Shown: one piece after another, positions 8,988 through 22,517 of the stretch
Layout: every line of letters starts with the position of its first letter
How positions within the stretch are numbered: position 1 is the first letter of the stretch
The notes under the pieces: generated by a model
The model's database searches: none
What the model saw: the letters and a program-made list of their open reading frames with translations, nothing else
What the model was told of the DNA's origin: nothing
Position numbers and translations under genes: made by a program
Virus record (IMG/VR): IMGVR_UViG_3300020235_000070
Location: 1 to 50,496 of that record
Strand: one strand, 5' to 3'
Length of the DNA stretch: 50,496 bases
DNA from: a virus
Lineage: Duplodnaviria > Caudoviricetes

Positions 8988-9055
8988 AAGCTGGGCGGGG
9001 ACTCGAACCCCTGACTAAACTCCCATAGATTTAGCCGCAAACCTGCGCCCGGCTT
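8988..9055 (-). ncRNA. tRNA-like element A (shortened D-arm)
   Basis: AAGCCGGGC/GCCCAGCTT closing stem, GCA-GGTT-TGC, GGCTAAA-loop-TTTAGTC, T-arm GGGG-TTCGAGT-CCCC. Confidence 0.65.
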
Positions 9056-9063
9056 ACCGGGAC

Positions 9064-9369
9064 TTAACTAGCTCTCGGTATTGCTACTGCCGCTACTCCC
9101 CATTTACCGTCAACCTGCATAGCACGACAAACAGGAACAAGGTTGAGATTCCTCTTGAGGTAGTAATTCGTACCAGAAGAATGAATGGAAGTTCTCAACT
9201 GAGCAGCCTCCCCCTCATCCTCACACTGTACGAAGAAATGCTTAGGAGGCTCATCATTCTCAGGAATGATCGCATCCCACGGATACTTCGACTTCTTAAT
9301 AACAGGGGGCATCGTTAGCCCCGACCCTACCACAATAGGGCGGTCCTTTATTTCCCTTTTACCAGCCAT
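9064..9369 (-). CDS. Hypothetical phage protein (KYPW...FFV motif, possibly DNA binding)
   Basis: 101 aa, AAGGAA RBS. Confidence 0.65.
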   Translation of the reverse strand: MAGKREIKDRPIVVGSGLTMPPVIKKSKYPWDAIIPENDEPPKHFFVQCEDEGEAAQLRTSIHSSGTNYYLKRNLNLVPVCRAMQVDGKWGVAAVAIPRAS

Positions 9370-9421
9370 GATTTCTTTCCTTTTAAGAGTTGATCGTCTA
9401 CAACTATGGGAATTTATAACT

Positions 9422-9961
9422 TCACGCTGCTACTGGAGCCCACGAACCATAGTCCTGATTCTCGTAGACTTCCCCATCTCTCTCTACAACTTCCTTAGAA
9501 AGAGTCACATCTATCAGCCTATCTACAAGCTGATCCCAACCGTTACCAAGTTCCTCAAATGCATCTGCATCCTGACCAACTTCTCCGTTGATAATCCAGC
9601 TATACTTCTGGAAAAGCTTTGCGTTTGCATCCTTTTCTTCCTTACGCCTGAACCCGCAAGCAGCCATGATGAAAGGCTTGCAGAATTTCCATCCACCTTC
9701 AGTCCTTGTGTAGCAGGAATAAGGTGTGACAGTCTTTCCAGCGATCTTGTCAGTTTGAAGCTCACCATCGTCGTCATACTGACCGACCATTTCAAGACCA
9801 TATCTCACACCGCAGGAAATGTACACATCTCCGGTGTCAGGGTGTTTGGCTTCACGCATGAAGGCAGTCCTCTTGATGATCTTGACCTGGTAACGTCCCT
9901 TTTCAAAGATAGGGATGTTAGCCTCAACGCTGGTAAAATCCGGCTCAAAAATTGGTGACAT
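9422..9961 (-). CDS. Putative single-stranded DNA-binding protein (DUF669-like)
   Basis: PDF..VE...PI..GRY.V.I N-terminus, acidic, directly downstream of the Sak4-like ATPase. Confidence 0.6.
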   Translation of the reverse strand: MSPIFEPDFTSVEANIPIFEKGRYQVKIIKRTAFMREAKHPDTGDVYISCGVRYGLEMVGQYDDDGELQTDKIAGKTVTPYSCYTRTEGGWKFCKPFIMAACGFRRKEEKDANAKLFQKYSWIINGEVGQDADAFEELGNGWDQLVDRLIDVTLSKEVVERDGEVYENQDYGSWAPVAA

Positions 9962-10019
9962 GATACTACTCCGTGAAATGAAATTATACTACACGACTAG
10001 GTACTTCTATGGGATTAGT

Positions 10020-10889
10020 TCATTTGCTTCCTCCTACGGCCTTCGCCTGTGCTTGGAACTTTATAATAGTCTTAGAGATATTAGGATCTTGATAGTCATT
10101 AGATACTATACCACCAAGGCGTGTACCCGCTATGATCTCATACGGAGAGTCTGAAGCTATAGTCCTCGCCTCAAACTTTTGTCCATTCTTCGTCATACGC
10201 CACACATTGTCAAACTTCTGTGCAATCCTAGTTCTCTGTTTACCTACAAACAATGGACGTATACCTATAAGGTCTGGTAATTGAGTCTTTCTATTAGCCT
10301 TCTGTACCTCATACTCATGGGCTATAAAAATTATATTCTTATCAATATCAAACATCCAACTTACCCATTGGCTCATTAAAGATTGAGCACCCTTCCAGTC
10401 GGAGTCGAAGGGCGCAAGAATCCCGTGTTTCATGTAGGCTTCCCAGGTAGAATAACCCTCTGCCCCAGGACTCCTAGTATCATTGGATATGTGGATGGTT
10501 TTGTTCATCTGGAAATCTTGGAGATTCGTAGCGTTGTCTAGGACAAGAGTCTCAAAGGTTCCAGTTTTGGAAGGGAAATTCTCTTTGGCATCTAGTTCCA
10601 AAGCTTCATCTAGGCAACGGGATACGGCATCACACCCAATAGGGTCTTTAACCTTACCCATCTTCCCGATGGTTTCACTGACATAATCAGTAACTAAATC
10701 TTTCTTGCCATGCTTATCTTGGAAGTGCTTTCCAAAGTAGGTCTTGACTTCATTGTCTCCACCCACACCTAAATGATAAATAGGCTCAGGAGAAGTTAAA
10801 GCAGTAAATGTCTTGCCTGTTTTTGGAGCCCCGTAGATGAGGAATTTCTCCCTACCGTCTAAAATCTCGGGACTAATCGGTGATGGCAT
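10020..10889 (-). CDS. AAA_24/Sak4-like recombination ATPase
   Basis: LIYGAPKTGKT Walker A, TLVLDN Walker B, IFIAHE, FDNVW. Confidence 0.8.
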   Translation of the reverse strand: MPSPISPEILDGREKFLIYGAPKTGKTFTALTSPEPIYHLGVGGDNEVKTYFGKHFQDKHGKKDLVTDYVSETIGKMGKVKDPIGCDAVSRCLDEALELDAKENFPSKTGTFETLVLDNATNLQDFQMNKTIHISNDTRSPGAEGYSTWEAYMKHGILAPFDSDWKGAQSLMSQWVSWMFDIDKNIIFIAHEYEVQKANRKTQLPDLIGIRPLFVGKQRTRIAQKFDNVWRMTKNGQKFEARTIASDSPYEIIAGTRLGGIVSNDYQDPNISKTIIKFQAQAKAVGGSK

Positions 10890-11265
10890 CTTCGTCCTTT
10901 ATGGGATGTAGTGGGATTGACTCGGTAGAAATTTCTTCCATAACTTTTAGGGGATCTTCGCCACGTTGTACTCGTTTGATTAACTTGTAGACGTTGTGTA
11001 TCGGTTGAGGATACATTCCATCTGGAACACCAATCTCTTTGAGAATCATATCTAAGGTCAACCTAAGTGTAGCCCGCTCATGTTGTCTTACTTGGGTCTT
11101 TTCCCTAGTTAGATGCTCTCTGATATAGGCTGCATCTTTGTCAGTAAACTTGATCTTGAACTTGATTCCAGAGTGTGACTTATCGCCTAGTTCTAATACA
11201 ATCCAGAAAGGGTCTTTGAAGGTTACGCCTAGGACTTTACCCTCTAAGACTGTCGTTTGGATCAT
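10873..11265 (-). CDS. Hypothetical protein
   Basis: 130 aa, GGAGG RBS. Confidence 0.65.
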   Translation of the reverse strand: MIQTTVLEGKVLGVTFKDPFWIVLELGDKSHSGIKFKIKFTDKDAAYIREHLTREKTQVRQHERATLRLTLDMILKEIGVPDGMYPQPIHNVYKLIKRVQRGEDPLKVMEEISTESIPLHPIKDEDAITD

Positions 11266-11420
11266 TACTTATTCCTCCTTCGACTAAGCCTAGATTGCTT
11301 ACGAGACTTTTTCTTGCGAAGTATAGCTTTAGGAGATAGATGTTTGAAGAAGAATCTACTTCCAGCTTCGTTGTCTAGGATAACTGCGTGGCCCTGTTGG
11401 GCTCGGCGTCTTGCACTCAT
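11265..11420 (-). CDS. Small, very basic protein (51 aa)
   Basis: MSARRRAQQ...RKKKSRKQSRLSRRRNK; GGAGG RBS; ATGA and TAATG coupling. Confidence 0.6.
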   Translation of the reverse strand: MSARRRAQQGHAVILDNEAGSRFFFKHLSPKAILRKKKSRKQSRLSRRRNK

Positions 11421-11707
11421 AGAGTACCTCCACCTGTCCTTATTAGTTTACTGACTTCTTCATATTTCTTTCCGAGAACTTTTCTTAGCTTCTCTCTAAC
11501 CATGTACGCTGATTCCATTGGCTGTAGATGTTCTGGCCCAGGAATCTGTCTCCACATTCCACCTGAATTTATGTTAGATACCCACATAGATCCATCATCA
11601 CACAATGCTACCAAAAGAGATAGGGGTGTACTCATGTTATCCATACCAGGTTCAACTATAGATGTTAACTGGATAACCTTTCTATCTGTGTCGTCTTGTA
11701 AAAACAT
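11417..11707 (-). CDS. Hypothetical protein
   Basis: 96 aa from MFLQDD; TAATG coupling. Confidence 0.6.
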   Translation of the reverse strand: MFLQDDTDRKVIQLTSIVEPGMDNMSTPLSLLVALCDDGSMWVSNINSGGMWRQIPGPEHLQPMESAYMVREKLRKVLGKKYEEVSKLIRTGGGTL

Positions 11708-11778
11708 TATGAAACCAACAGGTAAACGAGGACCGTAGCACAAATTATGAAGTATATAACATCACTTTCCTGCGTCAT
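11707..11778 (-). CDS. Single-pass membrane micropeptide (23 aa)
   Basis: MTQESDVIYFIICATVLVYLLVS; ATGA and TAATG overlaps exactly fill the gap. Confidence 0.5.
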   Translation of the reverse strand: MTQESDVIYFIICATVLVYLLVS

Positions 11779-12827
11779 AACTCGGACTCCTCTGCGTCAG
11801 GATCAGCAAAATCCCAATGGGAATACACAGTGTAATTCTCTAACCATTTTTCCATCATATAGGCACTACTCCCGTTTTCCTCACAAAGATCAAAGTATGG
11901 GCAACGTCCAAAATCTTGACAGGCTATCGTGCGTTGAGGAAATGCTAAGTATCCTAGTTCCTCTACTCTAGACCACATCATCACGATCATCTGACGTTCC
12001 ATCATACGAGAGGCAAGCCAAGCTTCCTGTTGGCCTCGTGTGTATGTGAAATGATGCTGGTGAATCTCTGGCCCTTTGGTCTTGGTATTATATAGAGTCT
12101 CCACTAATACCTCAAACTCCTCGCCGCGTAGCATCTCACCGCCCCACTTATAACCCTGCATTTGGCTGCTAGGATTAAACTTGTCCTTATATTTGTCACC
12201 CATTCTGGACGTAGATTTGAAGTCCTTAATCATGTCCTTGTCATTGAGTGTTATATACTTTATAAACTGGTCAACTCTCCCACCATGACGGGCCTGGACA
12301 TAGGTTCCTTCCCTACATTTAATACAAGTCTCGCCTTCTTTCTCTGTGATACTTGTCCATCCACATGAAAGGCAGATAACAAACGGAAGTTCAATATCAA
12401 ATGAATCCTCGGAACGAGTAACTAGGATAGTTCCTTTAGTCATCTGTTCTTCAATTCTTGTTCTAGCTAGATTACAAGATTCGTATAACCTGAGCATATT
12501 TAGATAGGCCCACTTACTATCAGCAGGAGGCAATTCTAACAATTCTGCTGCCTCGGTTCTAGCTGCCTCGTGGATGGCATCAGTCATTCCTGAGCCAGAT
12601 TCTTTCATAGCTAGTTCTGCAAGCTCTCTATACTTATGGTAGGCTAGACCAAATTTGATTGGATAAGACACACCAATAGAACCACGACGTAGGCCATACC
12701 TAATGAACCCGCGTCTAGGGCATCTACCGTATTCAGTCTCCGTGGAATCATCCGATATTTCCTCGAAGGGATACATCGGAAGTGATACCTTCCACTTCTT
12801 AGTATTTATCTTAGTCTCAACCTTCAT
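11775..12827 (-). CDS. PD-(D/E)xK exonuclease (RecB/AddB/Cas4-like) with an inserted Zn ribbon
   Basis: CPRR, FGLAYH, GRVD, IKDFKS, QMQGY, C-terminal C..FGRCPYFDLC; internal CLSC...CIKC. Confidence 0.85.
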   Translation of the reverse strand: MKVETKINTKKWKVSLPMYPFEEISDDSTETEYGRCPRRGFIRYGLRRGSIGVSYPIKFGLAYHKYRELAELAMKESGSGMTDAIHEAARTEAAELLELPPADSKWAYLNMLRLYESCNLARTRIEEQMTKGTILVTRSEDSFDIELPFVICLSCGWTSITEKEGETCIKCREGTYVQARHGGRVDQFIKYITLNDKDMIKDFKSTSRMGDKYKDKFNPSSQMQGYKWGGEMLRGEEFEVLVETLYNTKTKGPEIHQHHFTYTRGQQEAWLASRMMERQMIVMMWSRVEELGYLAFPQRTIACQDFGRCPYFDLCEENGSSAYMMEKWLENYTVYSHWDFADPDAEESEL

Positions 12828-13044
12828 CTTCGTCCTCTACATAATCATTCATTTCTGCGGCTGCTGATTCCACCGCTTCAGATACTTCTCCATCTAAGAC
12901 TGTATGGTCATGTAGTTCATTAAACTTCTTGAGAGATAAATTCAAAAAAAATTTCAACATCCCTCGACTAGGAAATATCAACTTGAATTCATCGACAGCA
13001 ACCTTATCAAGCTCGATGGTGGTTTTGTAATACTCAATCATCAT
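12817..13044 (-). CDS. Hypothetical protein
   Basis: 75 aa ORF in the operon. Confidence 0.55.
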   Translation of the reverse strand: MMIEYYKTTIELDKVAVDEFKLIFPSRGMLKFFLNLSLKKFNELHDHTVLDGEVSEAVESAAAEMNDYVEDEDEG

Positions 13045-13047
13045 GCT

Positions 13048-13200
13048 TCATGGTAGGATGTACCAAGAGTCAGGGTCAGATTCGTAGGACCATTTCATCT
13101 TGTTAGCGGCTAGGTCCACTAGGAATATACTTTCCATTAAGGTCCAATGAAAGTACACTCTCCACCATTGAGGGGAGAAGTTGTAATGGACCAACGCCAC
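13048..13200 (-). CDS. Hypothetical protein (start uncertain)
   Basis: Aromatic-rich ORF filling the gap. Confidence 0.4.
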   Translation of the reverse strand: MALVHYNFSPQWWRVYFHWTLMESIFLVDLAANKMKWSYESDPDSWYILP

Positions 13201-13201
13201 A

Positions 13202-13408
13202 CTACACTGAAGCGCCACTGTCGCCCCCTGCGTCAATGATCTGTTTCATTTCATCTACGCTCATATCTGCTGGAGCGTGAAACTCTCCCCCTTCTGCAAA
13301 TCTTACGACCACTCGCTCATAGGGGGTGGAATACCAAATGCGGCGAACATCTTCCACTGTCACATACTCAGGATTGCCGTCATGGTTGATAAGACGTATG
13401 AGAGTCAC
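13202..13408 (-). CDS. Hypothetical protein
   Basis: 68 aa ORF in the operon. Confidence 0.55.
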   Translation of the reverse strand: MTLIRLINHDGNPEYVTVEDVRRIWYSTPYERVVVRFAEGGEFHAPADMSVDEMKQIIDAGGDSGASV

Positions 13409-13414
13409 GGTTGG

Positions 13415-13810
13415 TTATCCATCCTTTAATCCATTCATATGCGGCCACATCCAAGCTGGTCTACAATGATACCACCATGTTATTGGAATATCTTTTTGAG
13501 GAACCAACGCCACACTCCCACACCAATGCTCAGGATCATCGTGATATGTGTTGCAGCGTTTACATTTTACTAACTCTGAGATACCTGCCAACTTTCTTTC
13601 TGCTTTTCTAAGTGGAGAGTCATTAAGATAGACTACTTCGTAAGGCTTCTTAGTACCCTCTGCATAGAATTCATAGTGACTACTATATACATCATCATCC
13701 CTCATTTCTTGTGTTACAAATTTATCATACTTACTGTACCACTTCTTCATCTTATCTAAATCTTCGGGCTTACTTGGAGTTAGATCATCAAGGATTAAGA
13801 ATTTATTCAT
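13415..13810 (-). CDS. Hypothetical protein with a C-terminal Cys/His cluster
   Basis: CKRC..H...HWC. Confidence 0.6.
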   Translation of the reverse strand: MNKFLILDDLTPSKPEDLDKMKKWYSKYDKFVTQEMRDDDVYSSHYEFYAEGTKKPYEVVYLNDSPLRKAERKLAGISELVKCKRCNTYHDDPEHWCGSVALVPQKDIPITWWYHCRPAWMWPHMNGLKDG

Positions 13811-14348
13811 CGGGTGTCCAATACAATTCTGCGTATTCCACTTTCGTACTCAACGTAATTCCCTTGTCCTCGTGGTCCATAAATCCCCAATCATTAGTCT
13901 TAGTCCAATCGAATAACTTCTGCTTATCCTCTGGCTTTAGAATAACATTCGGGAATCGTAGCTCAACATACCCTTGCTTCTCACCCTCTAGAGCCCCGGC
14001 AAGTACATCAAATAGATTCACGCCGGATTCTATTGTTCCTTTGACGACTCTATTATTGCTTCCACTATCCGAAACAGTGTCCTCCCCAACAGCAACCCCA
14101 ACGGGACCGCGAGTATATTCAGCGACAACAGCATCGTGTTCCACCTTAAATTTGAAGTTATGGAAAATAGAATCGTAGTAGTGTTTTAAGTCTTGGAATT
14201 TTTTAGACGCAAGGACGGCCTCGCGTAGCTTGTAGGCAAGCTTGGTAGGATTAGTGGTTTCAAACCGGAAGTTTTCCTTAGCTTCTAACAACTGATCTAG
14301 CTGAGGTTTATTCCGATTGACCGCGTGGCGAGTAAGATTATAACCCAT
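13803..14348 (-). CDS. Hypothetical protein
   Basis: 181 aa, overlaps its neighbours. Confidence 0.7.
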   Translation of the reverse strand: MGYNLTRHAVNRNKPQLDQLLEAKENFRFETTNPTKLAYKLREAVLASKKFQDLKHYYDSIFHNFKFKVEHDAVVAEYTRGPVGVAVGEDTVSDSGSNNRVVKGTIESGVNLFDVLAGALEGEKQGYVELRFPNVILKPEDKQKLFDWTKTNDWGFMDHEDKGITLSTKVEYAELYWTPDE

Positions 14349-14541
14349 TGGGTCTTATGGGACGAGGATAATGTCCTTCAAGCTTCTTGTATTCTTCACG
14401 GAAGGATTCTTTTGCATCCAACCAGCGACCTTTATGCTTACACAGTTTGAGTATTGCAAAGAGGTGTCTTATTGGAGAGCAATCGTCGAAGAAGGTTTTG
14501 TGCTCCCGCCAAATCTTGTTAAAAGCTGATCTAACTAACAT
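14338..14541 (-). CDS. Hypothetical protein
   Basis: 67 aa, GAGG RBS. Confidence 0.55.
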   Translation of the reverse strand: MLVRSAFNKIWREHKTFFDDCSPIRHLFAILKLCKHKGRWLDAKESFREEYKKLEGHYPRPIRPNGL

Positions 14542-14776
14542 AATTTACCCTCTCTGGAAAATCTTTGTAAATTTCCATAAATGCATTTCTTAAGCCTGGC
14601 TTGAGTAGCTCGTGAAATGTGTCCCGCGTTACCTCACCTAGTTTATCGTAGGCTGGATCATCTAGTAGGTCTGTAATGGGTTGGACGTACAATCTCTCTG
14701 CTAACAACGCCGAGCACAGTACACCCGCCGCAACCCGATTACGGACTAGGGTTAGAAACTTTCTTCGACTTAGCAT
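14531..14776 (-). CDS. Small protein with a twin-arginine-like N-terminus and a segment similar to the major capsid N-terminus
   Basis: MLSRRKFL; RDTFHELLKPGLRNAFMEIYKDFPE versus MCP RGAFNHLLRPGLRRDFRDSYMGFEE; GGAGG RBS. Confidence 0.7.
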   Translation of the reverse strand: MLSRRKFLTLVRNRVAAGVLCSALLAERLYVQPITDLLDDPAYDKLGEVTRDTFHELLKPGLRNAFMEIYKDFPERVNYVS

Positions 14777-14939
14777 CTAAGACCTCCCCATGTGAATTAA
14801 ACCTACAATCACACGCCGAACAATTATATTCCCATTCGTTAGTTGTCGCTAGTAGATATATTTCTACGTATTGTTTGCAATTTGGGCATATCTCTTTCAG
14901 GTACATCATCTTCTCCTGCTGCTGCTCTTGCCTCGTCAA
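14739..14939 (-). CDS. Zn-ribbon protein
   Basis: CPNC...CSAC; start uncertain. Confidence 0.5.
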   Translation of the reverse strand: MTRQEQQQEKMMYLKEICPNCKQYVEIYLLATTNEWEYNCSACDCRFNSHGEVLDAKSKKVSNPSP

Positions 14940-15423
14940 TTAAAGCTGCATCGTGGTCTGATAGAAGCGAAAGTTTGTCTAATCTTTCCAGCCAAATCTG
15001 TTCATGTTCTCCTCTACCTGGTCCTAATATCTCATCCACATCTTGTACAGAGTAGTGTATAGAATAAATGAACGCATTCATTTTCTTCACAGTAGTAATC
15101 ATATCGACGTTGTTGGTATCTTCGCATGATTGTACTATAAAGTAACTCAACATTCCCATACAATAACATAGGAGATCCCAATGTAGGGGTTGTTGAGCGG
15201 CCTCTTTATAATCTTCTAGACCTAGGGCTCTGATTATGAATGTGTTAATTAAATCTTGACGTTCCTCTATGGACAAATGTTTTGCATCGACAACCTCCAT
15301 CCTAGATGTGATGGTTTCTTCGAGAGTTTGCTTCAATGGTTTTGGAACGTAGTGGAGACAATTACACTTAGGGCAACTCCCACCGGGATGGTGGTGTCCA
15401 CAGAGACAGTACACTTTGGTCAC
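14839..15423 (-). CDS. Hypothetical protein with an N-terminal Cys/His finger
   Basis: CLCGHHH...CPKCNC; GTGA coupling. Confidence 0.6.
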   Translation of the reverse strand: MTKVYCLCGHHHPGGSCPKCNCLHYVPKPLKQTLEETITSRMEVVDAKHLSIEERQDLINTFIIRALGLEDYKEAAQQPLHWDLLCYCMGMLSYFIVQSCEDTNNVDMITTVKKMNAFIYSIHYSVQDVDEILGPGRGEHEQIWLERLDKLSLLSDHDAALIDEARAAAGEDDVPERDMPKLQTIRRNISTSDN

Positions 15424-15554
15424 TTGGTTGGCACCAACTCCCGCTCTTTCTCTGTCTCTTTCTTTTCTGGCTGCGGCTGCGTGTGGGGCGTTTTCTGTGG
15501 AATTACTTCGGGCTCGATCTCATGCTCTCTGATTGGCAATCCGATGTCACTCAT
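15420..15554 (-). CDS. Small Pro/Glu-rich peptide (44 aa)
   Basis: MSDIGLPIREHEIEPEVIPQ...; GAGGAG RBS. Confidence 0.55.
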   Translation of the reverse strand: MSDIGLPIREHEIEPEVIPQKTPHTQPQPEKKETEKERELVPTK

Positions 15555-15852: not shown

Positions 15853-16073
15853 TTGTGAATCCTTTCTCTGAGGTATCGTACATACTCTGGACTAGGTAAT
15901 CTTACAGATCCTACTGCTTCACCATCTACTGTAATAGTAGCGTAGTGTACATCTGGTTCATCTTCATTTGAGGCTACAGAATTAAGCTTAACTATCCACT
16001 CACATTCTTCTGGTGGTTTAAGCTCCTCCTTTTTTGCCCCATCATATCCTGATGTTGACGGTATGCTACCCAC
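15849..16073 (-). CDS. Hypothetical protein
   Basis: 74 aa ORF in the operon. Confidence 0.55.
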   Translation of the reverse strand: MGSIPSTSGYDGAKKEELKPPEECEWIVKLNSVASNEDEPDVHYATITVDGEAVGSVRLPSPEYVRYLRERIHK

Positions 16074-16266
16074 TCTTGTTTACCTCCTCTATCCTATCTT
16101 TAGCTACCTTGAGATACCCCGGTATAACAAAGTTGAATAGCATCCCCTCCGTTATAGGGAATTTGTCATATTCTTTTGAAAATGGTGCAAGAATATTCCC
16201 TAATTCTACAGCATGATTGTGTAGTCTCTCGTAGTCAAGATCCATTTGTGAATCCTTATCACTCAT
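16066..16266 (-). CDS. Hypothetical protein
   Basis: 66 aa ORF in the operon. Confidence 0.55.
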   Translation of the reverse strand: MSDKDSQMDLDYERLHNHAVELGNILAPFSKEYDKFPITEGMLFNFVIPGYLKVAKDRIEEVNKSG

Positions 16267-16654
16267 CTGGTTCTAACCTGTCATAGTCTGGAAACTTATA
16301 AGGCTTCTTCATCATACCCTTCGGTTGCCAAATTATAGGCAACTCGCGCATAGCATCGTACTCGTCTAGTGATATAGCTAGTGTAGCAGATGTAGGGAGT
16401 GCTTTTTTATCGTACAACTCCATTACATTCTTTCTATCAATAGTTATATCTATCATATACTTATGAATCCCACTCTCTCCACACACAGTAGTCTGCTCAA
16501 ATAACTTTGCCCATATGTAATAGGCAATCTGTTTGTCCTCTTTCCAGTAATGCTCTACCCATTCGATGTAGTCTGTACCCAACAAAAACATAAGTTTTGC
16601 AGGCTTCTTACCAACTACATCTGTGCCATGTCTGTATAGTATATTTTTACTCAT
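16259..16654 (-). CDS. Hypothetical protein (LYRHGT N-terminus)
   Basis: 131 aa ORF. Confidence 0.6.
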   Translation of the reverse strand: MSKNILYRHGTDVVGKKPAKLMFLLGTDYIEWVEHYWKEDKQIAYYIWAKLFEQTTVCGESGIHKYMIDITIDRKNVMELYDKKALPTSATLAISLDEYDAMRELPIIWQPKGMMKKPYKFPDYDRLEPDE

Positions 16655-16664
16655 ATTATTTTAA

Positions 16665-16789
16665 GGGGCTTTCACACCGTAGTCGGACCCATGCTTACGT
16701 TCGGGGAGCCACCCCCTGCTGTGACCCGATTAATCTTATCACCGTAATTGTAGCCACCAATTACAAGAATCTACTATGCTACTAACCCC
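16665..16789 (-). ncRNA. Structured RNA with an AGUA/GAA (loop E/sarcin-ricin type) internal loop and a three-way junction
   Basis: GGGGTT-AGTA-GCAT..GTAG / CTAC.GTGT-GAA-AGCCCC; arms GTAATTG/CAATTAC and TCGGGTC/GGTCCGA with GGGG/CCCC. Confidence 0.6.
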
Positions 16790-16791
16790 AT

Positions 16792-16876
16792 TGGAGGGGT
16801 GAGGATTTGAACCTCACTAGGCAACGGCGGAACCCCACAGTTCTTTACCGCACCTTCCGGGTGATTTCTCCCCTCC
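16792..16876 (-). ncRNA. tRNA-like element B
   Basis: Perfect 7-bp acceptor GGAGGGG/CCCCTCC-A and T-arm TGAGG-TTCAAAT-CCTCA; D and anticodon arms are non-canonical. Confidence 0.7.
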
Positions 16877-16882
16877 ATTAAA

Positions 16883-17302
16883 TCAATCCCAAGGACACCA
16901 AACGAGATGGATTCCTCTGGCTTCAAAGTAAGGTTGCATTTCTTTGATTCTGTCAAACGGAGTGTAATCAGCATCACCAGACTGATCGTTGAGTTTCATT
17001 ACTGTATTACAATCGTTGTTCTCCTCAATGTTGTGTCTTTTCACGCCCCATTCTGGGCACTCCACGAGCCAATCGTCATAGAATCCATCAAACTCACCCT
17101 GTCGCATATCAAATAAAACATCCGCGTCTATATCCGTTAACAGAGAGATACCAACTAAGTGTTCTATCTCAACACCGCGATCTCTTGCATCAATTCCCAT
17201 GATACATCCACAGAAATCTCCATTCTGTAACTCACCCAAAATCCCTTTCGCGGGTTCTCCTCTGATCCATTCAGAGTTTTTCACCAAAAGCTTTCTCATC
17301 AT
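16883..17302 (-). CDS. Hypothetical protein
   Basis: Start at MMRKLL with a GGAGG RBS; WIRG...CGCIMG motif. Confidence 0.65.
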   Translation of the reverse strand: MMRKLLVKNSEWIRGEPAKGILGELQNGDFCGCIMGIDARDRGVEIEHLVGISLLTDIDADVLFDMRQGEFDGFYDDWLVECPEWGVKRHNIEENNDCNTVMKLNDQSGDADYTPFDRIKEMQPYFEARGIHLVWCPWD

Positions 17303-17335
17303 AATCCTCCTATGGGAACGAGAAATAGTACAAAA

Positions 17336-17445
17336 GAGAGGCCCGGAATCGAACCGGGAGATCATCGCTTTGGATGTGATCGCCTCCTAAGTTCCTAGCT
17401 TTTTCTGTGCAGCAGAATCGCAGCTAGGCCCCCCTAGGCACTCTC
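17336..17445 (-). ncRNA. tRNA-like element C (extended first arm)
   Basis: GAGAG/CTCTC closing stem, long CCTAGG..CCTAGCT..TTCTG/CAGAA..AGCTAGG..CTTAGG arm, GATCA/TGATC arm, T-arm CCCGG-TTCGATT-CCGGG. Confidence 0.7.
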
Positions 17446-17494
17446 AGCGTTTCACCAATAAACATTACACACACTTGTTGGGTTCGACGGGATA

Positions 17495-17641
17495 TTACTT
17501 CCCGTCTAATCTCTCATAATACACCTCCTTTTCTTCTAGCTTTTCTTTGTGTCTGTTTTCTTCTAGATGTGTGAGACAGAAGAACTCTCCACCTTCAGCA
17601 GCTCTGTAACACTCATCTTCTTCCCATTGACACTTAGCCAT
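17495..17641 (-). CDS. Small Cys/His protein (48 aa)
   Basis: MAKCQWEEDEC...FC..H; AAGGA RBS. Confidence 0.5.
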   Translation of the reverse strand: MAKCQWEEDECYRAAEGGEFFCLTHLEENRHKEKLEEKEVYYERLDGK

Positions 17642-17646
17642 TATGT

Positions 17647-17853
17647 TTATCCTTCCCCCGAACGCTGTTTTAATTGAATTTCTTTACAATCATCCAGTGC
17701 CCGTTCAAGAAAATCTACGAAAGCATCTGTCGTAGCAAAGAAAGTTAGGTTAGGTTTTCCATTCACCCAAACCTGCACTTGATTTCCATGTGATGAAAAA
17801 AATTTCATCGGCGTAAATTGTCCAACAGCATACGCCTTGAGTTCTACTATCAT
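17647..17853 (-). CDS. Hypothetical protein
   Basis: 68 aa, ATGA coupling. Confidence 0.55.
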   Translation of the reverse strand: MIVELKAYAVGQFTPMKFFSSHGNQVQVWVNGKPNLTFFATTDAFVDFLERALDDCKEIQLKQRSGEG

Positions 17854-18467
17854 TCGTCTTGATAGAGATTGAGGAAATCACTCAATCGAATCACACTCAC
17901 AGGACAATGGTATCTAGCTTCCAGTTTATCAGCAGCTATTTTGTAATCCGCATAAACTACCCTTCCCTCGTGGGAGCCCATAGCCGCATTTGCTGCTTGT
18001 ACCTGCAATCCACCAGAAATCTGTGCTACGAGCATCCAAAGCTCCTCGACAATACATATCTGAGCCCGGTATCCATACTCATGCTCAACAACATGGCCTG
18101 AGCTACCAATTAAACCTACAGCCTGACCAATTTGTAGTCTGTGGAGTCCATTGAGTAGTTCAACAGACTTGTAGGAATAAATTCCATAATCATGGTATGG
18201 ATCGTTACTGACTCTCAACGCACCACGAGTTCTTACAGGATTCCACGAACACACTCTAGCAAGCTTTCCATTCTGCATCTTTTTCGTAGTTTGTGTCGGA
18301 GATTCCCAAACCATCTGTGCCGATGCGGAATATAACATCACATCCGGCCATTCAATACTCCAAGACCTCCACCCTACTAGGGGCTTAGTCCCTTTCTGTG
18401 GCTTAGGAGCAAAGAATTTATTAACTTTCTCTGGTCCCTTTCGCTCACCGTATCGGTAACTTCCCAT
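17850..18467 (-). CDS. Hypothetical protein with GWRxW...GIY...VEHExGYRA motifs (possible ADP-ribosyltransferase-like fold)
   Basis: Motif spacing; the fold assignment is an inference. Confidence 0.6.
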   Translation of the reverse strand: MGSYRYGERKGPEKVNKFFAPKPQKGTKPLVGWRSWSIEWPDVMLYSASAQMVWESPTQTTKKMQNGKLARVCSWNPVRTRGALRVSNDPYHDYGIYSYKSVELLNGLHRLQIGQAVGLIGSSGHVVEHEYGYRAQICIVEELWMLVAQISGGLQVQAANAAMGSHEGRVVYADYKIAADKLEARYHCPVSVIRLSDFLNLYQDE

Positions 18468-18616
18468 CAGTCAAAGAATAACATTAGGTGAAAAGGGCCT
18501 AGTGTCATATCTAGTCCGAGAACATCGAAGTTCACTAAAAATCCAAGTCCCCAAACACCTACATCAATCTCAAATACAGCCCTTGTACTTCCTTTGTGAT
18601 TTAGTTCGAGTATCAT
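18467..18616 (-). CDS. Small hydrophobic protein (49 aa)
   Basis: AAGGAG RBS, TGATG coupling. Confidence 0.5.
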   Translation of the reverse strand: MILELNHKGSTRAVFEIDVGVWGLGFLVNFDVLGLDMTLGPFHLMLFFD

Positions 18617-18631
18617 AGTGGGGCTCCTTAC

Positions 18632-18718
18632 TTACTTTCTAACTACATGAATAGAGAATATTAGGCCAGCTATCATAGCAAGTAAAAAGATTATTACCTG
18701 CCCTTGGAAATGTGTCAT
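18632..18718 (-). CDS. Single-pass membrane micropeptide (28 aa)
   Basis: MTHFQGQVIIFLLAMIAGLIFSIHVVRK; ATGA coupling. Confidence 0.45.
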   Translation of the reverse strand: MTHFQGQVIIFLLAMIAGLIFSIHVVRK

Positions 18719-18780
18719 AAACCTAATACTATCCAGATGATTGCCATGTACAGCACCAGTAACAGGGCTGTCGATTCCAT
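18715..18780 (-). CDS. Single-pass membrane micropeptide (21 aa)
   Basis: MESTALLLVLYMAIIWIVLGL. Confidence 0.4.
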   Translation of the reverse strand: MESTALLLVLYMAIIWIVLGL

Positions 18781-18787
18781 CACGAAA

Positions 18788-19000
18788 TTAGTTTTGTGCT
18801 TTCTCATTGTGGGGTTCCTTTTCCAGCGTGTGTCGTTTTCTGCTCCTACTTGCCGGAGCTTCCAAAACCCATGCAATAAATCTATCTATCGCGGGTCGAT
18901 CCCGGCGGATGAAATTCCTCATACTGAGGTGTGAGAGTTTCCATGCAGAATAGATACTCTCGTTATTATTCACCCAAAGTTCCCTTTCGGTGTCATTCAT
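18788..19000 (-). CDS. Hypothetical protein
   Basis: MNDTERELWVNNNESIY... Confidence 0.6.
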   Translation of the reverse strand: MNDTERELWVNNNESIYSAWKLSHLSMRNFIRRDRPAIDRFIAWVLEAPASRSRKRHTLEKEPHNEKAQN

Positions 19001-19184
19001 TCTTTTCTTTCTCGATTGAGTCCAACTTATCCTCAATCCATCTTTCGTCATTCAGCATATCGGCCCGGTCTGCCATTTCATCAACCTGAGCCTCGCTTGC
19101 CATTTCACTCAATTCCTCGTCGGACTTGTCTGGATACTCTGCATCCAACCGCTCGAAGTGAGCAAACCAATTATCGCTTGACAT
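18993..19184 (-). CDS. Small acidic protein
   Basis: AAGGAGG RBS before MSSDNW; strongly Asp/Glu-rich. Confidence 0.6.
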   Translation of the reverse strand: MSSDNWFAHFERLDAEYPDKSDEELSEMASEAQVDEMADRADMLNDERWIEDKLDSIEKEKNE

Positions 19185-19215
19185 GGGATAAAACCTCCTT
19201 CTTATGGGAAAAACG

Positions 19216-19308
19216 ACCATAGGGGCAGGATCAGCCTCTCAACAATCCACTTACCGGCGCGCCGGGTGCCACAGCCTTTTGATTGGGCGGAATGACTCCC
19301 TCTACGGT
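19216..19308 (-). ncRNA. Degenerate cloverleaf-like element F
   Basis: ACCGTAG.GG/CCCTATGGT closing stem, GCC/GGC and CCGG/CCGG arms, GGATTG-TTGAGAGGC-TGATCC arm with a UGAGA T-loop-like sequence. Confidence 0.45.
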
Positions 19309-19499
19309 TAAACTATTTGCTGGACTCCTGCCAGCGCATACAATTTTGCTGGATCATCTACAACCAGCGGCATTTTGAAGTGACGTTCTTTGGTTGAGCG
19401 TACTGTTATTATCTCACCCGCTTTATTCTGATACTGACTATCACACGGAAACAATCTATTGCTTCCTAAATGGCATCCACCGCTAACAAATTTCCACAT
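19308..19499 (-). CDS. Hypothetical protein
   Basis: 63 aa, GGAGGAGG RBS. Confidence 0.6.
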   Translation of the reverse strand: MWKFVSGGCHLGSNRLFPCDSQYQNKAGEIITVRSTKERHFKMPLVVDDPAKLYALAGVQQIV

Positions 19500-19520
19500 A
19501 AAATTCCTCCTCCTTAAAAA

Positions 19521-19606
19521 TGCCCCTTATGGGATTTCATACCCAATCCTCTACCGCGACTTCCGGTAACGTGCACGATCCTGAGAATACACACACCCTA
19601 GGGGCA
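19521..19606 (-). ncRNA. tRNA-like element D
   Basis: TGCCCCT/AGGGGCA, GTGTG/TGCAC arm, TTACCG-GAAGTCG-CGGTAG arm, TGGG-TATGAAAT-CCCA T-like arm. Confidence 0.6.
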
Positions 19607-19611
19607 AAATA

Positions 19612-19699
19612 GAGGGGCTGGGAATCGAACCCAGAATAGGCAATCTCGTTTCCTATTCCTCCTGCCAAGCTATCTTCCAGTAACTTGGGAGGCACCCTC
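19612..19699 (-). ncRNA. tRNA-like element E (same architecture as C)
   Basis: GAGGG/CCCTC, TG linker, CCTCC-CAAGTTA/TAGCTTG-GGAGG arm, AATAGG/CCTATT arm, T-arm CTGGG-TTCGATT-CCCAG. Confidence 0.7.
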
Positions 19700-19704
19700 A
19701 GGTT

Positions 19705-19756
19705 TTCTCCTTCGAGGAACTAGACGTATCTTCTCCTTCGAGGAACTAAGACGTAT
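19705..19756. repeat. Tandem direct repeat, 2 x about 26 bp
   Basis: TTCTCCTTCGAGGAACTA(A)GACGTAT twice. Confidence 0.85.
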
Positions 19757-19757
19757 A

Positions 19758-19785
19758 GGCCAGTTTCTAGTCATGGCCCAGGACT
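19758..19785 (-). ncRNA. Compact H-type pseudoknot
   Basis: AGTC-CTG-GGCCA-T-GACT-AGAAAC-TGGCC: S1 AGTC/GACT, S2 GGCCA/TGGCC. Confidence 0.55.
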
Positions 19786-19840
19786 TTCAGAGAGTGGGTC
19801 CACAGCCCTGAGTGGGCAATCCCTCATTCTCCCTGATAAC

Positions 19841-20083
19841 TTACTTCGCCTTCTGTTCTTGAATGTACGGCCAAACTACCATTTTCCAAGCCGTCCACAA
19901 AATCGTGGAGTTTCTAATCTTTCCAAACGACCTCGCTTTGGCTAGGAATCCATCAAAGATTTTCTTTCTTTCTTTTGCATCTTCCATAGAAATTATTCCG
20001 GGTGTAGGTTTGGACCAAGAGTTAGCTCGTTCCTGATGCCAAATTTTCTGGCCCACATGGGATTTCTTTGATTTAATACTCAC
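19841..20083 (-). CDS. Basic hypothetical protein (GTG start likely)
   Basis: GTGA coupling to the upstream micropeptide. Confidence 0.55.
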   Translation of the reverse strand: MSIKSKKSHVGQKIWHQERANSWSKPTPGIISMEDAKERKKIFDGFLAKARSFGKIRNSTILWTAWKMVVWPYIQEQKAK

Positions 20084-20151
20084 GACACTAGCGCCATGTA
20101 AAAGACTATCACGATTGTCAGTCTCCACAGCGACCATACTATATCTATCAT
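20080..20151 (-). CDS. Single-pass membrane micropeptide (23 aa)
   Basis: MIDIVWSLWRLTIVIVFYMALVS; ATGA and GTGA overlaps. Confidence 0.45.
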   Translation of the reverse strand: MIDIVWSLWRLTIVIVFYMALVS

Positions 20152-22388
20152 GCCGCCTGTCCACCTTCAAGGTACATTTCTTCCTTGATCTTCTTAATCA
20201 GATCCATCATAAAAGTTCCTTCAACATCCCGAGAGAGTTCTATTCCTTCGACACTCGCCTCAATGATGTCAAACTTCTCATCCAGTAATTCCTGATGCCA
20301 CCGTTCTATCTTCACATCACACTGTAGATAATAGGCATCAATCGGGTGTGGATCTCTCATTCTCTGATGCGCCCGACCTTCACACTGTTCGTGCCATTTC
20401 GGGGACCAAAGTTGATCGTTGAAGATTACCCAGTAACAATATTCTATGTTATGTGATTCTTTCGATGCTTCCGTTGTCACAACATACTTGACATTTGGAT
20501 CTCCCCGAGCCGACTCGAATATCTCATCGCGCTTCTCAGGAACCATCGTGTGAAAATCACCGTTCGCTTTGTATACTGTACAAACAGCCTCATGTCCTAG
20601 TTCTTGAGCGATTCTATACGCTGATCCCTTATACTTTGCGAAGATTAAACCTGGCTTTCCAGTTTCTTCGTTCAGTTGCTCGGCCAGTTCCACAGTAAAT
20701 GGAACCTTTTCTGCCGAGCATATCATGGATAGTCTTAAAAGCTCTGCTAAGATATGAGTTACAGATGTAGCATCCGGCTTGTCTCCACTCGGATCGAATA
20801 TCTCTAGCTTCCGGTAGAATCCAGCCAGCACTTCCTCGTACCGAATCATTCCTTCATCCGACATAGAAGATATATTTACAACCCTATTCACATCTTCCAT
20901 ATCTTCCTGCACATCCCCACGCCTACGCCGAATGAATCTCGGTCGAAGCATCTCGTGAAGTTGTGCGACGTTTTGAGGAACCTTACCATCCCGCGTGTAT
21001 GTATCCTCAAACGCTTTGTGACTTGCAAATGTTATGGGATCAATCAGATTCAACAACGGCCAAAATTCTCCAGTCCTATTAATAACCGGAGAAGCTGTTG
21101 CAGGAATCACGTATTCGATCCCACCTAGTTTCCTGTGTGCTTTCGAGCGGTGTGTGTCGAGATTCCTAATCTGGTGTGCTTCGTCGATGCCTAGGAATTT
21201 TACACCGGCTGCAATAAAAATACTCGGCCAGTTGTAATTCTTAGGATCATCTTTTGCTGTACCTTCTTCTTTCACATACGTTCCCATCATATCATGGGAT
21301 ATAAGTATGTACGGCGCACCAGCTAGAATCTTTCCAATCGCTTCGATCTTCTTACCGTTTGTATTCACACACAGTACGGGAGTCTCACCCGTTAGATTGA
21401 GAATCTCACGCTTGAAATTTGGAATAGATCCAGACTTGACAGAAAATACTATCTGAGCCTTTGGTTCTTCCATCCTCAAAATCTCTGCTATAGCTATCAT
21501 TTCACAGGTTTTACCCAACCCCGTGTCGTCAGCTATAATCAGTTTCCCACCATTCACCAGAGCAAACTCAACACATACTCTTTGGAACGGCAGAAGATAA
21601 TCATGGAACGGCTCGTGAATCTGTTTCTTAGCGTTCCAGACTATCCTGTCCAGCTTCCAGATTCGTGGATCTTTTGAATCTTCTTGACCCACAATTTCAT
21701 CCAGCCGAGCGCGATCTTCAACCTGCTTAAGTATCACACCACGCGCCGCATCGGAGTATACTACCCCGGTTGTATTCTCAAGAACCGTAAAGATTCTCCA
21801 GCCTTCGGACAATGGAATAGTCCACGCATCTGACCAGTTCCACACAGCACCGGGTAATTCACTAAACCCCGCACCATACGTGGCCGCGTTCGGACCTTTC
21901 TTTGCCTCAAAAACTATATTACTTTTTGTAGATTTAATATCCACAAACCATTCTGGTGCGGTGAGGAACCAATTCAAATCATCCTCAACACCAACATCCC
22001 AAGAAACTGTCAGTAGCGGTAAAGCTTCCAGCTTTTCCTTGCAATCATCCCATGCTTTAATGGGAATCAAATTCATGGCGGGACGTTCTAGACCATCGTC
22101 GGGCGCACCATACTCTCTACGGACTTCACCCTTAAAGGCTCGTCCCGGTACACTTTTCCAAATTTCTAGAACATCCGGTCTGAATAAACTCTCACAAACC
22201 AGATTCCCACCACTTCTTGCTGTTACCACAACCTTGATTTCTTTCTTAGCGAGATCCTCAGCTTTCTTCAAAGCTTCTACTTCGGCATTAGCTAGTCGGA
22301 TCTCCTTTTTCTTTTCTTGCAAAGCTAACAGTTTCTCCTGTAGCTTCGCCTCCTCAGCATCCAATAGCTGAAGTTCTTCCACCGACAT
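20148..22388 (-). CDS. SNF2-family SF2 helicase/ATPase
   Basis: LLPFQ, IADDTGLGKT, IDEAH, ATASP, QCEGRAHQR; AAGGAG RBS before MSVEEL. Confidence 0.9.
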   Translation of the reverse strand: MSVEELQLLDAEEAKLQEKLLALQEKKKEIRLANAEVEALKKAEDLAKKEIKVVVTARSGGNLVCESLFRPDVLEIWKSVPGRAFKGEVRREYGAPDDGLERPAMNLIPIKAWDDCKEKLEALPLLTVSWDVGVEDDLNWFLTAPEWFVDIKSTKSNIVFEAKKGPNAATYGAGFSELPGAVWNWSDAWTIPLSEGWRIFTVLENTTGVVYSDAARGVILKQVEDRARLDEIVGQEDSKDPRIWKLDRIVWNAKKQIHEPFHDYLLPFQRVCVEFALVNGGKLIIADDTGLGKTCEMIAIAEILRMEEPKAQIVFSVKSGSIPNFKREILNLTGETPVLCVNTNGKKIEAIGKILAGAPYILISHDMMGTYVKEEGTAKDDPKNYNWPSIFIAAGVKFLGIDEAHQIRNLDTHRSKAHRKLGGIEYVIPATASPVINRTGEFWPLLNLIDPITFASHKAFEDTYTRDGKVPQNVAQLHEMLRPRFIRRRRGDVQEDMEDVNRVVNISSMSDEGMIRYEEVLAGFYRKLEIFDPSGDKPDATSVTHILAELLRLSMICSAEKVPFTVELAEQLNEETGKPGLIFAKYKGSAYRIAQELGHEAVCTVYKANGDFHTMVPEKRDEIFESARGDPNVKYVVTTEASKESHNIEYCYWVIFNDQLWSPKWHEQCEGRAHQRMRDPHPIDAYYLQCDVKIERWHQELLDEKFDIIEASVEGIELSRDVEGTFMMDLIKKIKEEMYLEGGQAA

Positions 22389-22434
22389 TGTGGGGCTCCT
22401 TTGAAAAGGTACATCTTCCTGATTAAATATGAAA

Positions 22435-22517
22435 TTCCCGTCCAAGTTTCGAGGCTTGGTTCTTGCGAGGATTGGAAGCGCATAATCCTGTCACGCTCTG
22501 CCGTGACGACACGGGAA
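22435..22517 (-). ncRNA. tRNA-like cloverleaf G
   Basis: TTCCCGT/ACGGGAA, GTCACG/CGTGAC, AGGATT/AATCCT, CCAAG-CCTCGAAA-CTTGG; all four stems are perfect Watson-Crick. Confidence 0.7.

Follow-up and report, generated by a model that had tools for sequence, protein, structure and literature searches.

Several gaps between the early genes of a tailed phage (Duplodnaviria; Caudoviricetes) hold stretches that can be folded into tRNA-like shapes, and the question that they raise is what such elements do in the transcript of a virus if they do not decode. The phage is uncultured and known from IMG/VR record IMGVR_UViG_3300020235_000070. This record, the whole of which is called the window here, is complete, measures 50,496 bp and has direct repeats at its termini. 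On its minus strand, small genes and genes for replication, which make up the early operon, extend from about 23.2 kb to 2.1 kb, and a preliminary description of the DNA had pointed to seven tRNA-shaped elements in it. In this study, we found that five of the seven can be regarded as tRNA-derived modules, that one (element 4) is a real but different structured RNA, and that one (element 5) has no support. Our reading is that the modules belong to a long early transcript in which they are cut by host RNase P and RNase Z, as the phage counterparts of the t-elements of plant mitochondria; we give this reading a probability of about 45%. The seven elements are listed below, L002 being a relative with a 66%-identical helicase and L064 a third genome fragment.

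8988..9055, minus strand: element 1, 68 nt, immediately upstream of the gene before the GroES-like one
16792..16876, minus strand: element 2, with a perfect 7-bp acceptor stem and a 5-bp T-stem (fold z = -2.44)
17336..17445, minus strand: element 3, with a canonical T-arm and an acceptor-like stem of 5+1 bp with a bulged U; homologue in L002
19216..19308, minus strand: element 4, a conserved four-way-junction RNA; homologues in L002 and L064
19521..19606, minus strand: element 5, the weakest member, in tandem with element 6
19612..19699, minus strand: element 6, forming the tandem pair with element 5; no homologue in the relatives
22435..22517, minus strand: element 7, 47 nt upstream of the helicase ATG (fold z = -2.1)

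As had been described, all seven intervals are in the sense orientation, on the early-gene strand, and lie between open reading frames (ORFs) or abut each other; from each of them the next start, a Shine-Dalgarno (SD) sequence with ATG, is 2-47 nt downstream. Four canonical T-loops had been noted, and the motif GGTTCRANTCC does occur at 8999, 16803, 17345 and 19621, that is, in elements 1, 2, 3 and 6, always on the minus strand. The expected number of copies in the window is 0.23, and none of 100 shuffles reached four. A T-arm with a 5-bp stem and a 7-nt UUCRANY loop is formed by elements 2, 3 and 6, and element 1 has the loop on a 4-bp stem. The acceptor stem that sits on the T-stem is perfect in element 2 (7+5 bp), has 5+1 bp and a bulged U in elements 3 and 6, and has the form 9+4 bp with one mismatch in element 1. 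Elements 4, 5 and 7 lack a UUCRANY T-arm. An alternative register of element 3 aside, the folds contain neither a D-arm with G18 G19 nor an anticodon arm (5 bp, 7-nt loop, U33), and the absence of CCA 3' of all seven elements was confirmed. ARAGORN at default settings reported no tRNA in the window, and Rfam returned no match at gathering thresholds, both as foreseen; the best score against RF00005 was 14.7 bits (element 6; cut-off 29), and at E-values up to 10 the only Rfam match was one of 15 nt between a T-loop and the transfer-messenger RNA (tmRNA) model. That the elements are not decoding tRNAs therefore holds for six of them, which lack both a D-arm and a 7-nt anticodon loop and give no tRNA after excision, with element 3 as the exception.

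Single-sequence folds were weakly better than those of shuffled sequences (z = -1.9, -2.4, -1.8, -0.3, -1.4, -1.8 and -2.1 for elements 1 to 7), and a generic descriptor consisting of a hairpin with a 7-nt loop and a closing stem was not strand-enriched (99 on the plus strand, 97 on the minus strand). Because the generic hairpin is not enriched, tRNA-likeness rests on the T-loop sequence, and, the folds being modest as well, only the four T-loop elements are demonstrably tRNA-like by sequence alone. The view that most sizeable gaps of the early strand hold such an element was an overstatement: 11 other sense-strand gaps fold without anything comparable (z from +1.7 to -1.9).

The wider clade provided further evidence. 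A helicase profile yielded 44 related loci (398,693 nt), in which the GGTTCRANTCC-type T-loop motif is present in 47 copies on the helicase strand and in two on the opposite strand; in the complete relatives that were searchable, 8 of 9 motif sites are on the helicase strand. ARAGORN found 16 tRNAs in the 44 loci, duplicates counted. Rfam concurs in 13 re-checked loci, none of whose non-tRNA elements passes the ARAGORN or the Rfam tRNA threshold. Removal of duplicate loci and addition of the window left 31 sense-strand non-tRNA sites, 27 of which have a 5-bp T-stem. A perfect 7-bp stem abutting the T-arm is formed at 15 of the 31, compared with 0-4 of 31 at seven control offsets and with a mean of 2.5 and a maximum of 7 in 200 shuffles of the upstream sequence. 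When one mismatch was allowed, a closing stem was present at 28 sites, of which 27 lie outside ATG-initiated ORFs and none is followed by CCA. This stem abuts the T-stem in the 7+5 bp geometry of tRNA, with a gap of 0-1 nt. The non-tRNA elements are 44-156 nt in length, and the shortest consist of an acceptor stem, a linker of 13-19 nt and a T-arm. In 322 kb of the clade there were 28 non-tRNA motif sites, 24 of them with a 5-bp T-stem, whereas 318 kb of unrelated viral contigs gave five motif sites and none with a T-stem.

The non-tRNA elements occupy the same operon slots as genuine tRNAs. In one locus (L040), a tRNA-Gln, a 50-nt mini-element, a tRNA-Pro, a tRNA-Ser and a 118-nt element follow in succession within 3.3 kb. 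About 28 non-homologous elements keep exactly the acceptor/T-arm unit, and the evolutionary series that runs from tRNA to minihelix suggests that phage tRNA genes have lost decoding and kept their processing function.

Conservation in the closest relatives bears on the folds themselves. L002 has homologues of elements 2, 3, 4 and 7, plus a further T-arm element upstream of its helicase, and L064 has elements 4 and 7. Covariation had been proposed as a check, and compensatory pairs were found in all four of these elements; elements 5 and 6 have no homologue. In the inserts of the window's clade, stems covary and loops are invariant. The acceptor stem of element 2 differs from that of L002 in 3 of 7 pairs, each changed on both sides. 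In element 3 the D-arm has given way to a rod of three covarying helices, whose GGGG bulge is conserved and whose 18-nt apex is invariant; the 32 pairs of the element are paired in 100% of cells in both genomes, seven being changed on both sides and three on one side, whereas controls with the partners slid by 1-3 columns gave 0-1 double changes. Element 4 is closed by a 9-bp stem with a conserved bulged A and contains three hairpins, one with an AAUCAAA loop, one variable and a 3' one with a GAGA tetraloop. Seven of its 25 pairs are compensatory and 98.7% of cells are paired, with one broken cell; one pair reads G-C, A-U and C-G in the three genomes, and a 28-nt 3' module is invariant. In 11 more distant relatives, the slot 3' of the helicase stop holds no element like element 4.

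Element 7 is closed by a stem of 6-7 bp. Within it lie a 6-bp hairpin that is conserved and has a GCAGAG loop, a middle part that varies and, at the position of the T-arm, a 5-bp hairpin with a degenerate 8-nt loop. It has homologues in L002, L064, L045 and the distant fragment L054, the last with the 5' part only. In the L045 copy, the canonical T-loop GGTTCGATTCC is aligned with the odd 8-nt loop. Two pairs are compensatory, and L054 shows in addition a swap from U-A to C-G. In L002 (12708-12848) and L064 (767-907), the element is found on the downstream side of the helicase, following a small gene, with about 58 extra nt in its middle. The slot upstream of the helicase is filled by other tRNA-like elements in L002, L045 and L051, that of L051 being a class II tRNA-Tyr. 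It appears that the modules change place or are replaced.

The pair counts lean towards the predicted folds, the structures having been derived from the same 2-4 genomes in which they were tested; they amount to good evidence, though not to statistical proof, that the folds of the elements are under selection. Several substitutions create G.U pairs, which can pair on the sense strand only, and the selected object is therefore the sense-orientation RNA. It is because of this conservation, and not of single-sequence folding, that we regard the structures as real.

The acceptor/T-arm half is the part of a tRNA that is recognised by RNase P, RNase Z, the CCA-adding enzyme and the T-loop-modifying enzymes. 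We propose that selection keeps the coaxial top half of acceptor stem and T-arm, while the D/anticodon half may be lost, shrunk or swapped for lineage-specific helices. Host RNase P would cut the 5' end of each module, and RNase Z or another 3' nuclease would cut after the discriminator; CCA is encoded by no module and by none of the 11 genuine tRNAs of the clade. The cuts would split the polycistronic early mRNA into segments with defined ends, a form of punctuation, and would also release stable small RNAs of 44-156 nt. The inserts in the window's clade, with their conserved loops, may have functions of their own. After cleavage upstream of element 3, the 3' end of the upstream mRNA could be capped by the following hairpin, in which L002 has one G-C to G.U change.

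17486..17506, minus strand: hairpin of 7 bp at the 3' end of the cistron that precedes element 3, conserved in L002

Sigma-70-like promoters are not enriched inside the operon (29 against 32.4 in shuffles), and because internal promoter enrichment is absent, a single long early transcript fits. Cleavage by host RNase P and a 3' nuclease is proposed because the acceptor/T-arm is conserved and RNase P accepts such minihelices, and also because t-elements share the motif and direct cutting by RNase P and RNase Z. According to the accessible part of PMC11143913, the RNA of Escherichia coli RNase P cleaves model hairpins made of an acceptor stem and a T-stem-loop efficiently and at the canonical site, and RNase P also cuts the phage M3 RNA, the precursor of the C4 RNA of P1/P7 and mRNAs. 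The t-elements of plant mitochondria, in the accessible part of PMC1920247, were found with GGTTCRANYCC, direct RNase P/Z cleavage that makes mRNA ends, and have partial CCA. Like them, the phage modules combine a T-arm of the GGTTCRANYCC type with a non-canonical tRNA-like fold and a place inside a longer transcript. A processing signal is the best-supported mechanism; the cleavage itself we infer entirely.

Several observations weigh against cleavage of this kind. On paper, elements 3 and 6 (5+1 bp, bulged U) and element 1 (9+4 bp, one mismatch) are imperfect substrates, and elements 5 and 7 have degenerate 8-nt loops in the T position. A 3' RCCA that could pair with RNase P RNA is lacking, as it also is in the clade's real tRNAs (0/11). 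Fourteen of the 28 non-tRNA elements end in U1:A72 rather than G1:C72, an end found in 0 of 11 genuine tRNAs, and the N-1 base shows no preference among the 28. Element 4 is a conserved structured RNA but is not tRNA-like, and at least one element thus needs another explanation. The invariant loops of elements 2, 3 and 4, at a helicase identity of 66%, are unexplained by a pure processing signal. Finally, a helicase-profile search of cellular genome contigs returned no relative and hence no host link.

If the cuts do occur, this phage group organises its early expression via borrowed host tRNA-maturation machinery, as is known from organelles. The modules would then account for a class of intergenic 'dark matter' in phages that escapes tRNA finders and Rfam and that a simple rule could retrieve, namely a T-loop motif with a closing stem directly next to it, both in the sense orientation. 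A single virus clade would display the whole course of evolution from a genuine tRNA gene to a minihelix of 44 nt.

The loops that processing does not account for are what a second reading takes up: the tRNA top half would be an excision-and-stability scaffold, and the inserts would act in trans. This reading is compatible with processing and is possible, although we doubt it. Payloads on a tRNA scaffold are suggested because the inserts are conserved and because elements 3 and 6 have one common top half with different inserts (the ends of the top half of element 6 are identical to those of element 3 of L002); the loops of elements 3 and 4 are invariant, too. The most specific case is element 2, which has a UUCAAAU T-loop and discriminator A, and in which the D and anticodon arms have given way to a single-stranded linker of 15 nt and a single long arm. 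The sites involved, three of which are copies of a motif at the ribosome-binding site (RBS), are as follows.

16829..16843, minus strand: apical hairpin of element 2, GAACUGUGGGGUUCC, a 15-mer identical in the window and L002
22390..22399, minus strand: GGAGCCCCAC motif, RBS of the SNF2 helicase, ending 1 nt before the ATG
18809..18818, minus strand: GGAACCCCAC motif, 1 nt before the ATG of a 30-codon ORF
18618..18627, minus strand: GGAGCCCCAC motif, 1 nt before the ATG of a 49-codon gene

The RBS motif GGA[AG]CCCCAC(A) has its reverse complement in the apical hairpin, and the rest of element 2 has diverged. Sense-strand copies of the motif number three in the window, six in L002 and four in L064, compared with 0.12 and 0.03 expected in the window and L002, respectively. 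All 13 copies end 0-3 nt before an ATG, and the single antisense copy, in the window as in L002, is the hairpin of element 2. With the motif of the helicase RBS, this hairpin is predicted to pair over 11 nt with one G.U (duplex of -22.9 kcal/mol). Duplexes of element 2 range from -22.9 to -26.7 kcal/mol against a median of -12.5 for 40 initiation regions of the window, and the two motif-bearing initiation regions rank first and second by duplex energy. Element 2 would be released from the distal part of the operon, and its hairpin would block, in the manner of C4 RNA, the RBS of several promoter-proximal early genes, including that of the helicase, and would stop their translation.

The evidence does not extend to the other elements. 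An unbiased test was negative: complementarity of at least 9 nt between the seven elements and 40 SD+ATG contexts was found 18 times, against 15.56 in shuffles, of which 66 of 200 reached 18, and coding-region controls gave 15. None of the conserved loops has a 12-mer target, and a perfect 10-nt match of the element 3 loop at 18033-18042 is not conserved in L002. The seed of element 2 is partly buried in a 5-bp stem, both the motif and element 2 are restricted to the closest clade, and the pairing was first spotted by eye. A count of k-mers recurring upstream of ATG in each relative was noisy, only AAGGAGCCCCAC of L002 standing out. A general antisense role of the elements is not supported, and the pairing of element 2 with the RBS motif is a predicted lead; as such, it makes a candidate RNA timer of early translation that can be tested directly. 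Unlikely, in our judgement, is the fullest form of the idea, in which the top half would be a general excision-and-stability cassette derived from phage tRNA and carrying diverse payloads, with element 2 as a delayed antisense timer of early genes. If true, such a natural tRNA scaffold would be relevant to RNA engineering. Between element 2 and the next gene lies a gap of 137 nt (16655-16791, minus strand) with a multi-hairpin fold (-38.5 kcal/mol, z = -1.2); L002 has no counterpart of it, and there the next gene directly follows element 2.

The preliminary description had also considered that the elements are decoys for anticodon nucleases, which is unlikely because most of them have no anticodon loop. 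A broader version, in which released tRNA mimics would act as decoys or inhibitors of host factors that bind the acceptor/T-arm half, such as defence toxins that target its acceptor end by modification or cleavage, or tRNA-sensing stress systems, is improbable as well. It would fit the many copies in one early operon with only the top half conserved, and also the U1:A72 end that sets 14 of 28 elements apart from the clade's real tRNAs. Defence systems that target tRNA and phage counter-measures are engaged in an active arms race, and some toxins act on the CCA end of tRNA. Septu, in the accessible part of PMC13096335, cleaves tRNA-Tyr. Most known anti-phage tRNases, however, cut anticodon or variable loops, which are missing here, and a search of the literature found no precedent for such a decoy. 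The mimics would also face competition from the very large tRNA pool of the cell, and general searches, which did not include a PADLOC scan, recognised no defence or anti-defence gene beside the elements.

The elements might instead be decaying tRNA pseudogenes, or plain cis structures (stabilisers or weak terminators) that involve no tRNA enzymes. The modest z-scores of the single-sequence folds point this way, as do the grading of the elements into real tRNAs in relatives, the terminator-like appearance of the T-arms and U-runs of elements 3 and 6, and the G/C stem of element 5 with its five U residues. Yet the compensatory changes and invariant loops indicate that the fold is under purifying selection, 28 sites retain the exact T-loop consensus although a generic hairpin would do as a stabiliser, and the closing stem abuts the T-stem in tRNA geometry, so that we hold this explanation to be of low probability.

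Least probable of all is that the elements are working tRNA genes that the finders miss, either with introns of the bulge-helix-bulge (BHB) type or as aberrant decoding tRNAs. The best candidate is element 3, as a tRNA-Trp(CCA) with an insertion in the D-arm. In the alternative register, its second arm has the 7-nt loop AUCCAAA (U33, CCA, A37), which is identical in L002, as is a 5-nt variable region; a 12-nt loop is invariant. Excision led ARAGORN to call tRNA-Trp(CCA) far more often than in controls that kept the top half and shuffled the interior: positives numbered 29 of 2,970 cases in the window and 32 of 2,970 in L002, against 28 of 59,400 in the controls, no replicate of which exceeded seven. 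The variants called as tRNA-Trp(CCA) itself were 24 of 2,970 in the window and 10 of 2,970 in L002. However, the ARAGORN excisions and acceptor registers are non-homologous between the two genomes, and the covarying helices of element 3 conflict with the D-stem that ARAGORN used. Because the AUCCAAA loop is kept identically in the relative, element 3 looks derived from a tRNA-Trp gene rather than a clean intron-bearing gene. Every single excision of 6-65 nt gave no positive for elements 1, 2, 4, 5, 6 and 7 and two L002 elements, and the minis of 44-57 nt are too short for tRNAs. An archaeal reading could appeal to the label of one helicase homologue (P0013), which is 46% identical and assigned at NCBI to a metagenome-assembled genome (MAG) of a Nitrososphaerales archaeon, on a 36-kb contig. 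The clade's genuine tRNAs are nonetheless bacterial in type, with a class II tRNA-Tyr and, by reading of the sequences, a bacterial-style tRNA-Leu; a relative has a tmRNA, and no RtcB ligase was found in the window. Because of these tRNAs and this tmRNA, mis-binning is suspected, and the P0013 contig may be viral and have been assigned to the archaeal MAG in error. The archaeal BHB intron-tRNA reading was rejected, exhaustive excision having failed for six of the seven elements and having given non-homologous solutions for element 3, in a search that did not look for BHB motifs explicitly.

Processing by host tRNA enzymes thus remains our preferred reading, and its nearest parallel is in plant mitochondria. 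The t-elements are likewise dispersed non-canonical cloverleaves with the same GGTTCRANYCC motif and no encoded CCA; they adjoin protein genes inside longer transcripts, and their cutting by RNase P and RNase Z has been proposed and partly shown, as far as the accessible part of PMC1920247 goes. Unlike t-elements, the phage modules occur in a tailed phage, with up to seven in a 21-kb operon and a size range from 44-nt minihelices to 156 nt, and the inserts in the window's clade are conserved, with covariation and invariant loops; they are known here from their sequence alone. To call them an undescribed system, as had been done, was too strong, given that their kind is known from plant mitochondria; what appears to be new is that they occur in a phage clade, form a series of sizes and carry conserved payloads.

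The C4 RNA of phages P1/P7 has a tRNA-like fold, is co-transcribed with its targets and blocks a ribosome-binding region by base pairing, and Rfam holds a C4 family. In the accessible part of PMC11143913, this antisense RNA is an RNase P substrate. Element 2 could match the pattern. Unlike C4, element 2 has no Rfam match even at E-values up to 10, a full acceptor stem with a canonical T-arm, and putative targets in the RBS motif of several genes. Complementarity of the C4 type to the RBS of co-transcribed genes is confined to element 2, with 10-11 nt at three sites of the window and six predicted sites in L002. T-even phages reportedly make tRNA-like stable RNAs beside the phage tRNAs, processed by RNase P (Moen, Seidman and McClain are said to have described them in 1978). 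Those RNAs sit in a dedicated tRNA cluster. The elements studied here, by contrast, are scattered between protein genes, and a genuine tRNA is missing altogether from most genomes of the closest clade. Animal mitochondrial tRNA punctuation, mascRNA, the tRNA-microRNA units of gammaherpesviruses and synthetic tRNA scaffolds all use the tRNA fold as a cleavage or stability cassette. These systems are eukaryotic or engineered, unlike the phage elements, and no natural example of such an architecture in a bacterial virus was found in the open full-text literature, a search that left subscription journals and supplements outside.

YrlA is a further non-coding RNA with a T-arm and an acceptor-like stem, and it also occurs in phages; the YrlA of Mycobacterium smegmatis is cut by RNase P and receives CCA (accessible part of PMC4201824). 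It adjoins Ro60, its ends form the Ro-binding helix, and its 'acceptor' is an internal hairpin with a D-arm mimic (same part of PMC4201824). In the phage elements, by contrast, the acceptor stem is built from the two ends of the RNA, and a D-arm is absent. We rejected an assignment as Y RNA: the six frames of the window gave no TROVE match, although control genomes responded, Rfam gave no match, and the topology is another. The tRNA-like domain of tmRNA likewise has an acceptor stem and a T-arm without an anticodon arm, but tmRNA was rejected, too, the window elements being 68-110 nt long, without a tag ORF or pseudoknots, and their only match, that of one T-loop, scoring 10.7 bits against the RF00023 cut-off of 47.

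The remaining elements are less well placed for comparison. Element 1 has a UUCGAGU T-loop on its 4-bp stem, the 9-bp closing stem with one mismatch, a 3-bp mini-hairpin and a 7-bp arm with the 10-nt loop UCUAUGGGAG (fold z = -1.91). Its T-loop is the one that matches the tmRNA model locally (10.7 bits), and the counterpart region lies off the contig of the only close relative. A short motif, UCCCAUAG, occurs in three early 5'-untranslated regions (UTRs), at 9404-9411, 10007-10014 and 17310-17317 (minus strand), with a variant near 19200. Its sole plus-strand copy, at 9021-9028, is the complement within the 10-nt loop of element 1. It was counted seven times in the window against 2.07 expected, a number reached by one of 100 shuffles, and was not seen in the UTRs of L002. 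The motif TTCCTCGAA is not enriched (13 against 14.07).

In element 5, a G/C-rich closing stem of 7 bp is followed by UUUUU, and the hairpin in the T position has the degenerate 8-nt loop UAUGAAAU. The fold (z = -1.37) was equalled by 20 of 200 shuffles, and no homologue was found in the relatives; beyond a plausible fold, element 5 is unsupported. Element 6 has the T-arm CUGGG-UUCGAUU-CCCAG under its 5+1 bp acceptor-like stem, a long arm of 13 bp and a 6-bp arm with an 11-nt loop. Immediately upstream of it is a direct repeat.

19705..19756, minus strand: 26-nt tandem repeat, 2.0 copies with 96% matches

Each copy of the repeat can form a small hairpin that covers AGGAG. L002 lacks the repeat and also the pair of elements 6 and 5. 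A terminator scan flagged the T-arms of element 3 (17340-17358) and element 6 (19615-19632) together with U-rich tracts on the minus strand; terminator-like sites in the window number 20, against 12.3 in shuffles.

Among the minus-strand genes are those for the SNF2 helicase (20148-22445), a Sak4-like protein, a GroES-like protein, a UDG/exonuclease, PolA and a DUF3987 helicase, and the plus strand carries an SU10-type portal gene and a capsid-like gene. Annotated phages gave no DNA match to the window, the best helicase identity being about 25%. DNA-pattern scans of IMG/VR with a 17-mer from element 3 and a 15-mer from element 2 found one true relative, the L002 contig; the other 31 stretches were chance matches, mostly in coding sequence. 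A 205-aa neighbour protein had only three non-self homologues, and the helicase profile was used as the anchor instead. Searches of the window for phage-encoded RNA enzymes found none, a CCA-adding enzyme and an RtcB ligase both having been looked for. The host of the phage is probably bacterial.

Some further observations concern the clade's RNAs and one neighbouring gene. The full tmRNA mentioned above is in a distant relative (L077, 7971-8271; Rfam 115.7 bits against a cut-off of 47), and its 3' end had first been counted as a non-tRNA T-loop site until Rfam showed the tmRNA. The discriminators of the 28 non-tRNA elements are U, A or C, never G. A tRNA-Ile(UAU), which implies a reading of AUA that is uncommon in bacteria, is encoded in L042 (9303-9375), L043 (6452-6525) and L077 (5657-5729). 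In the window, one gene downstream of element 1, lies the gene for the GroES/Cpn10-like co-chaperonin (8355-8786, minus strand; Pfam 38.4 bits).

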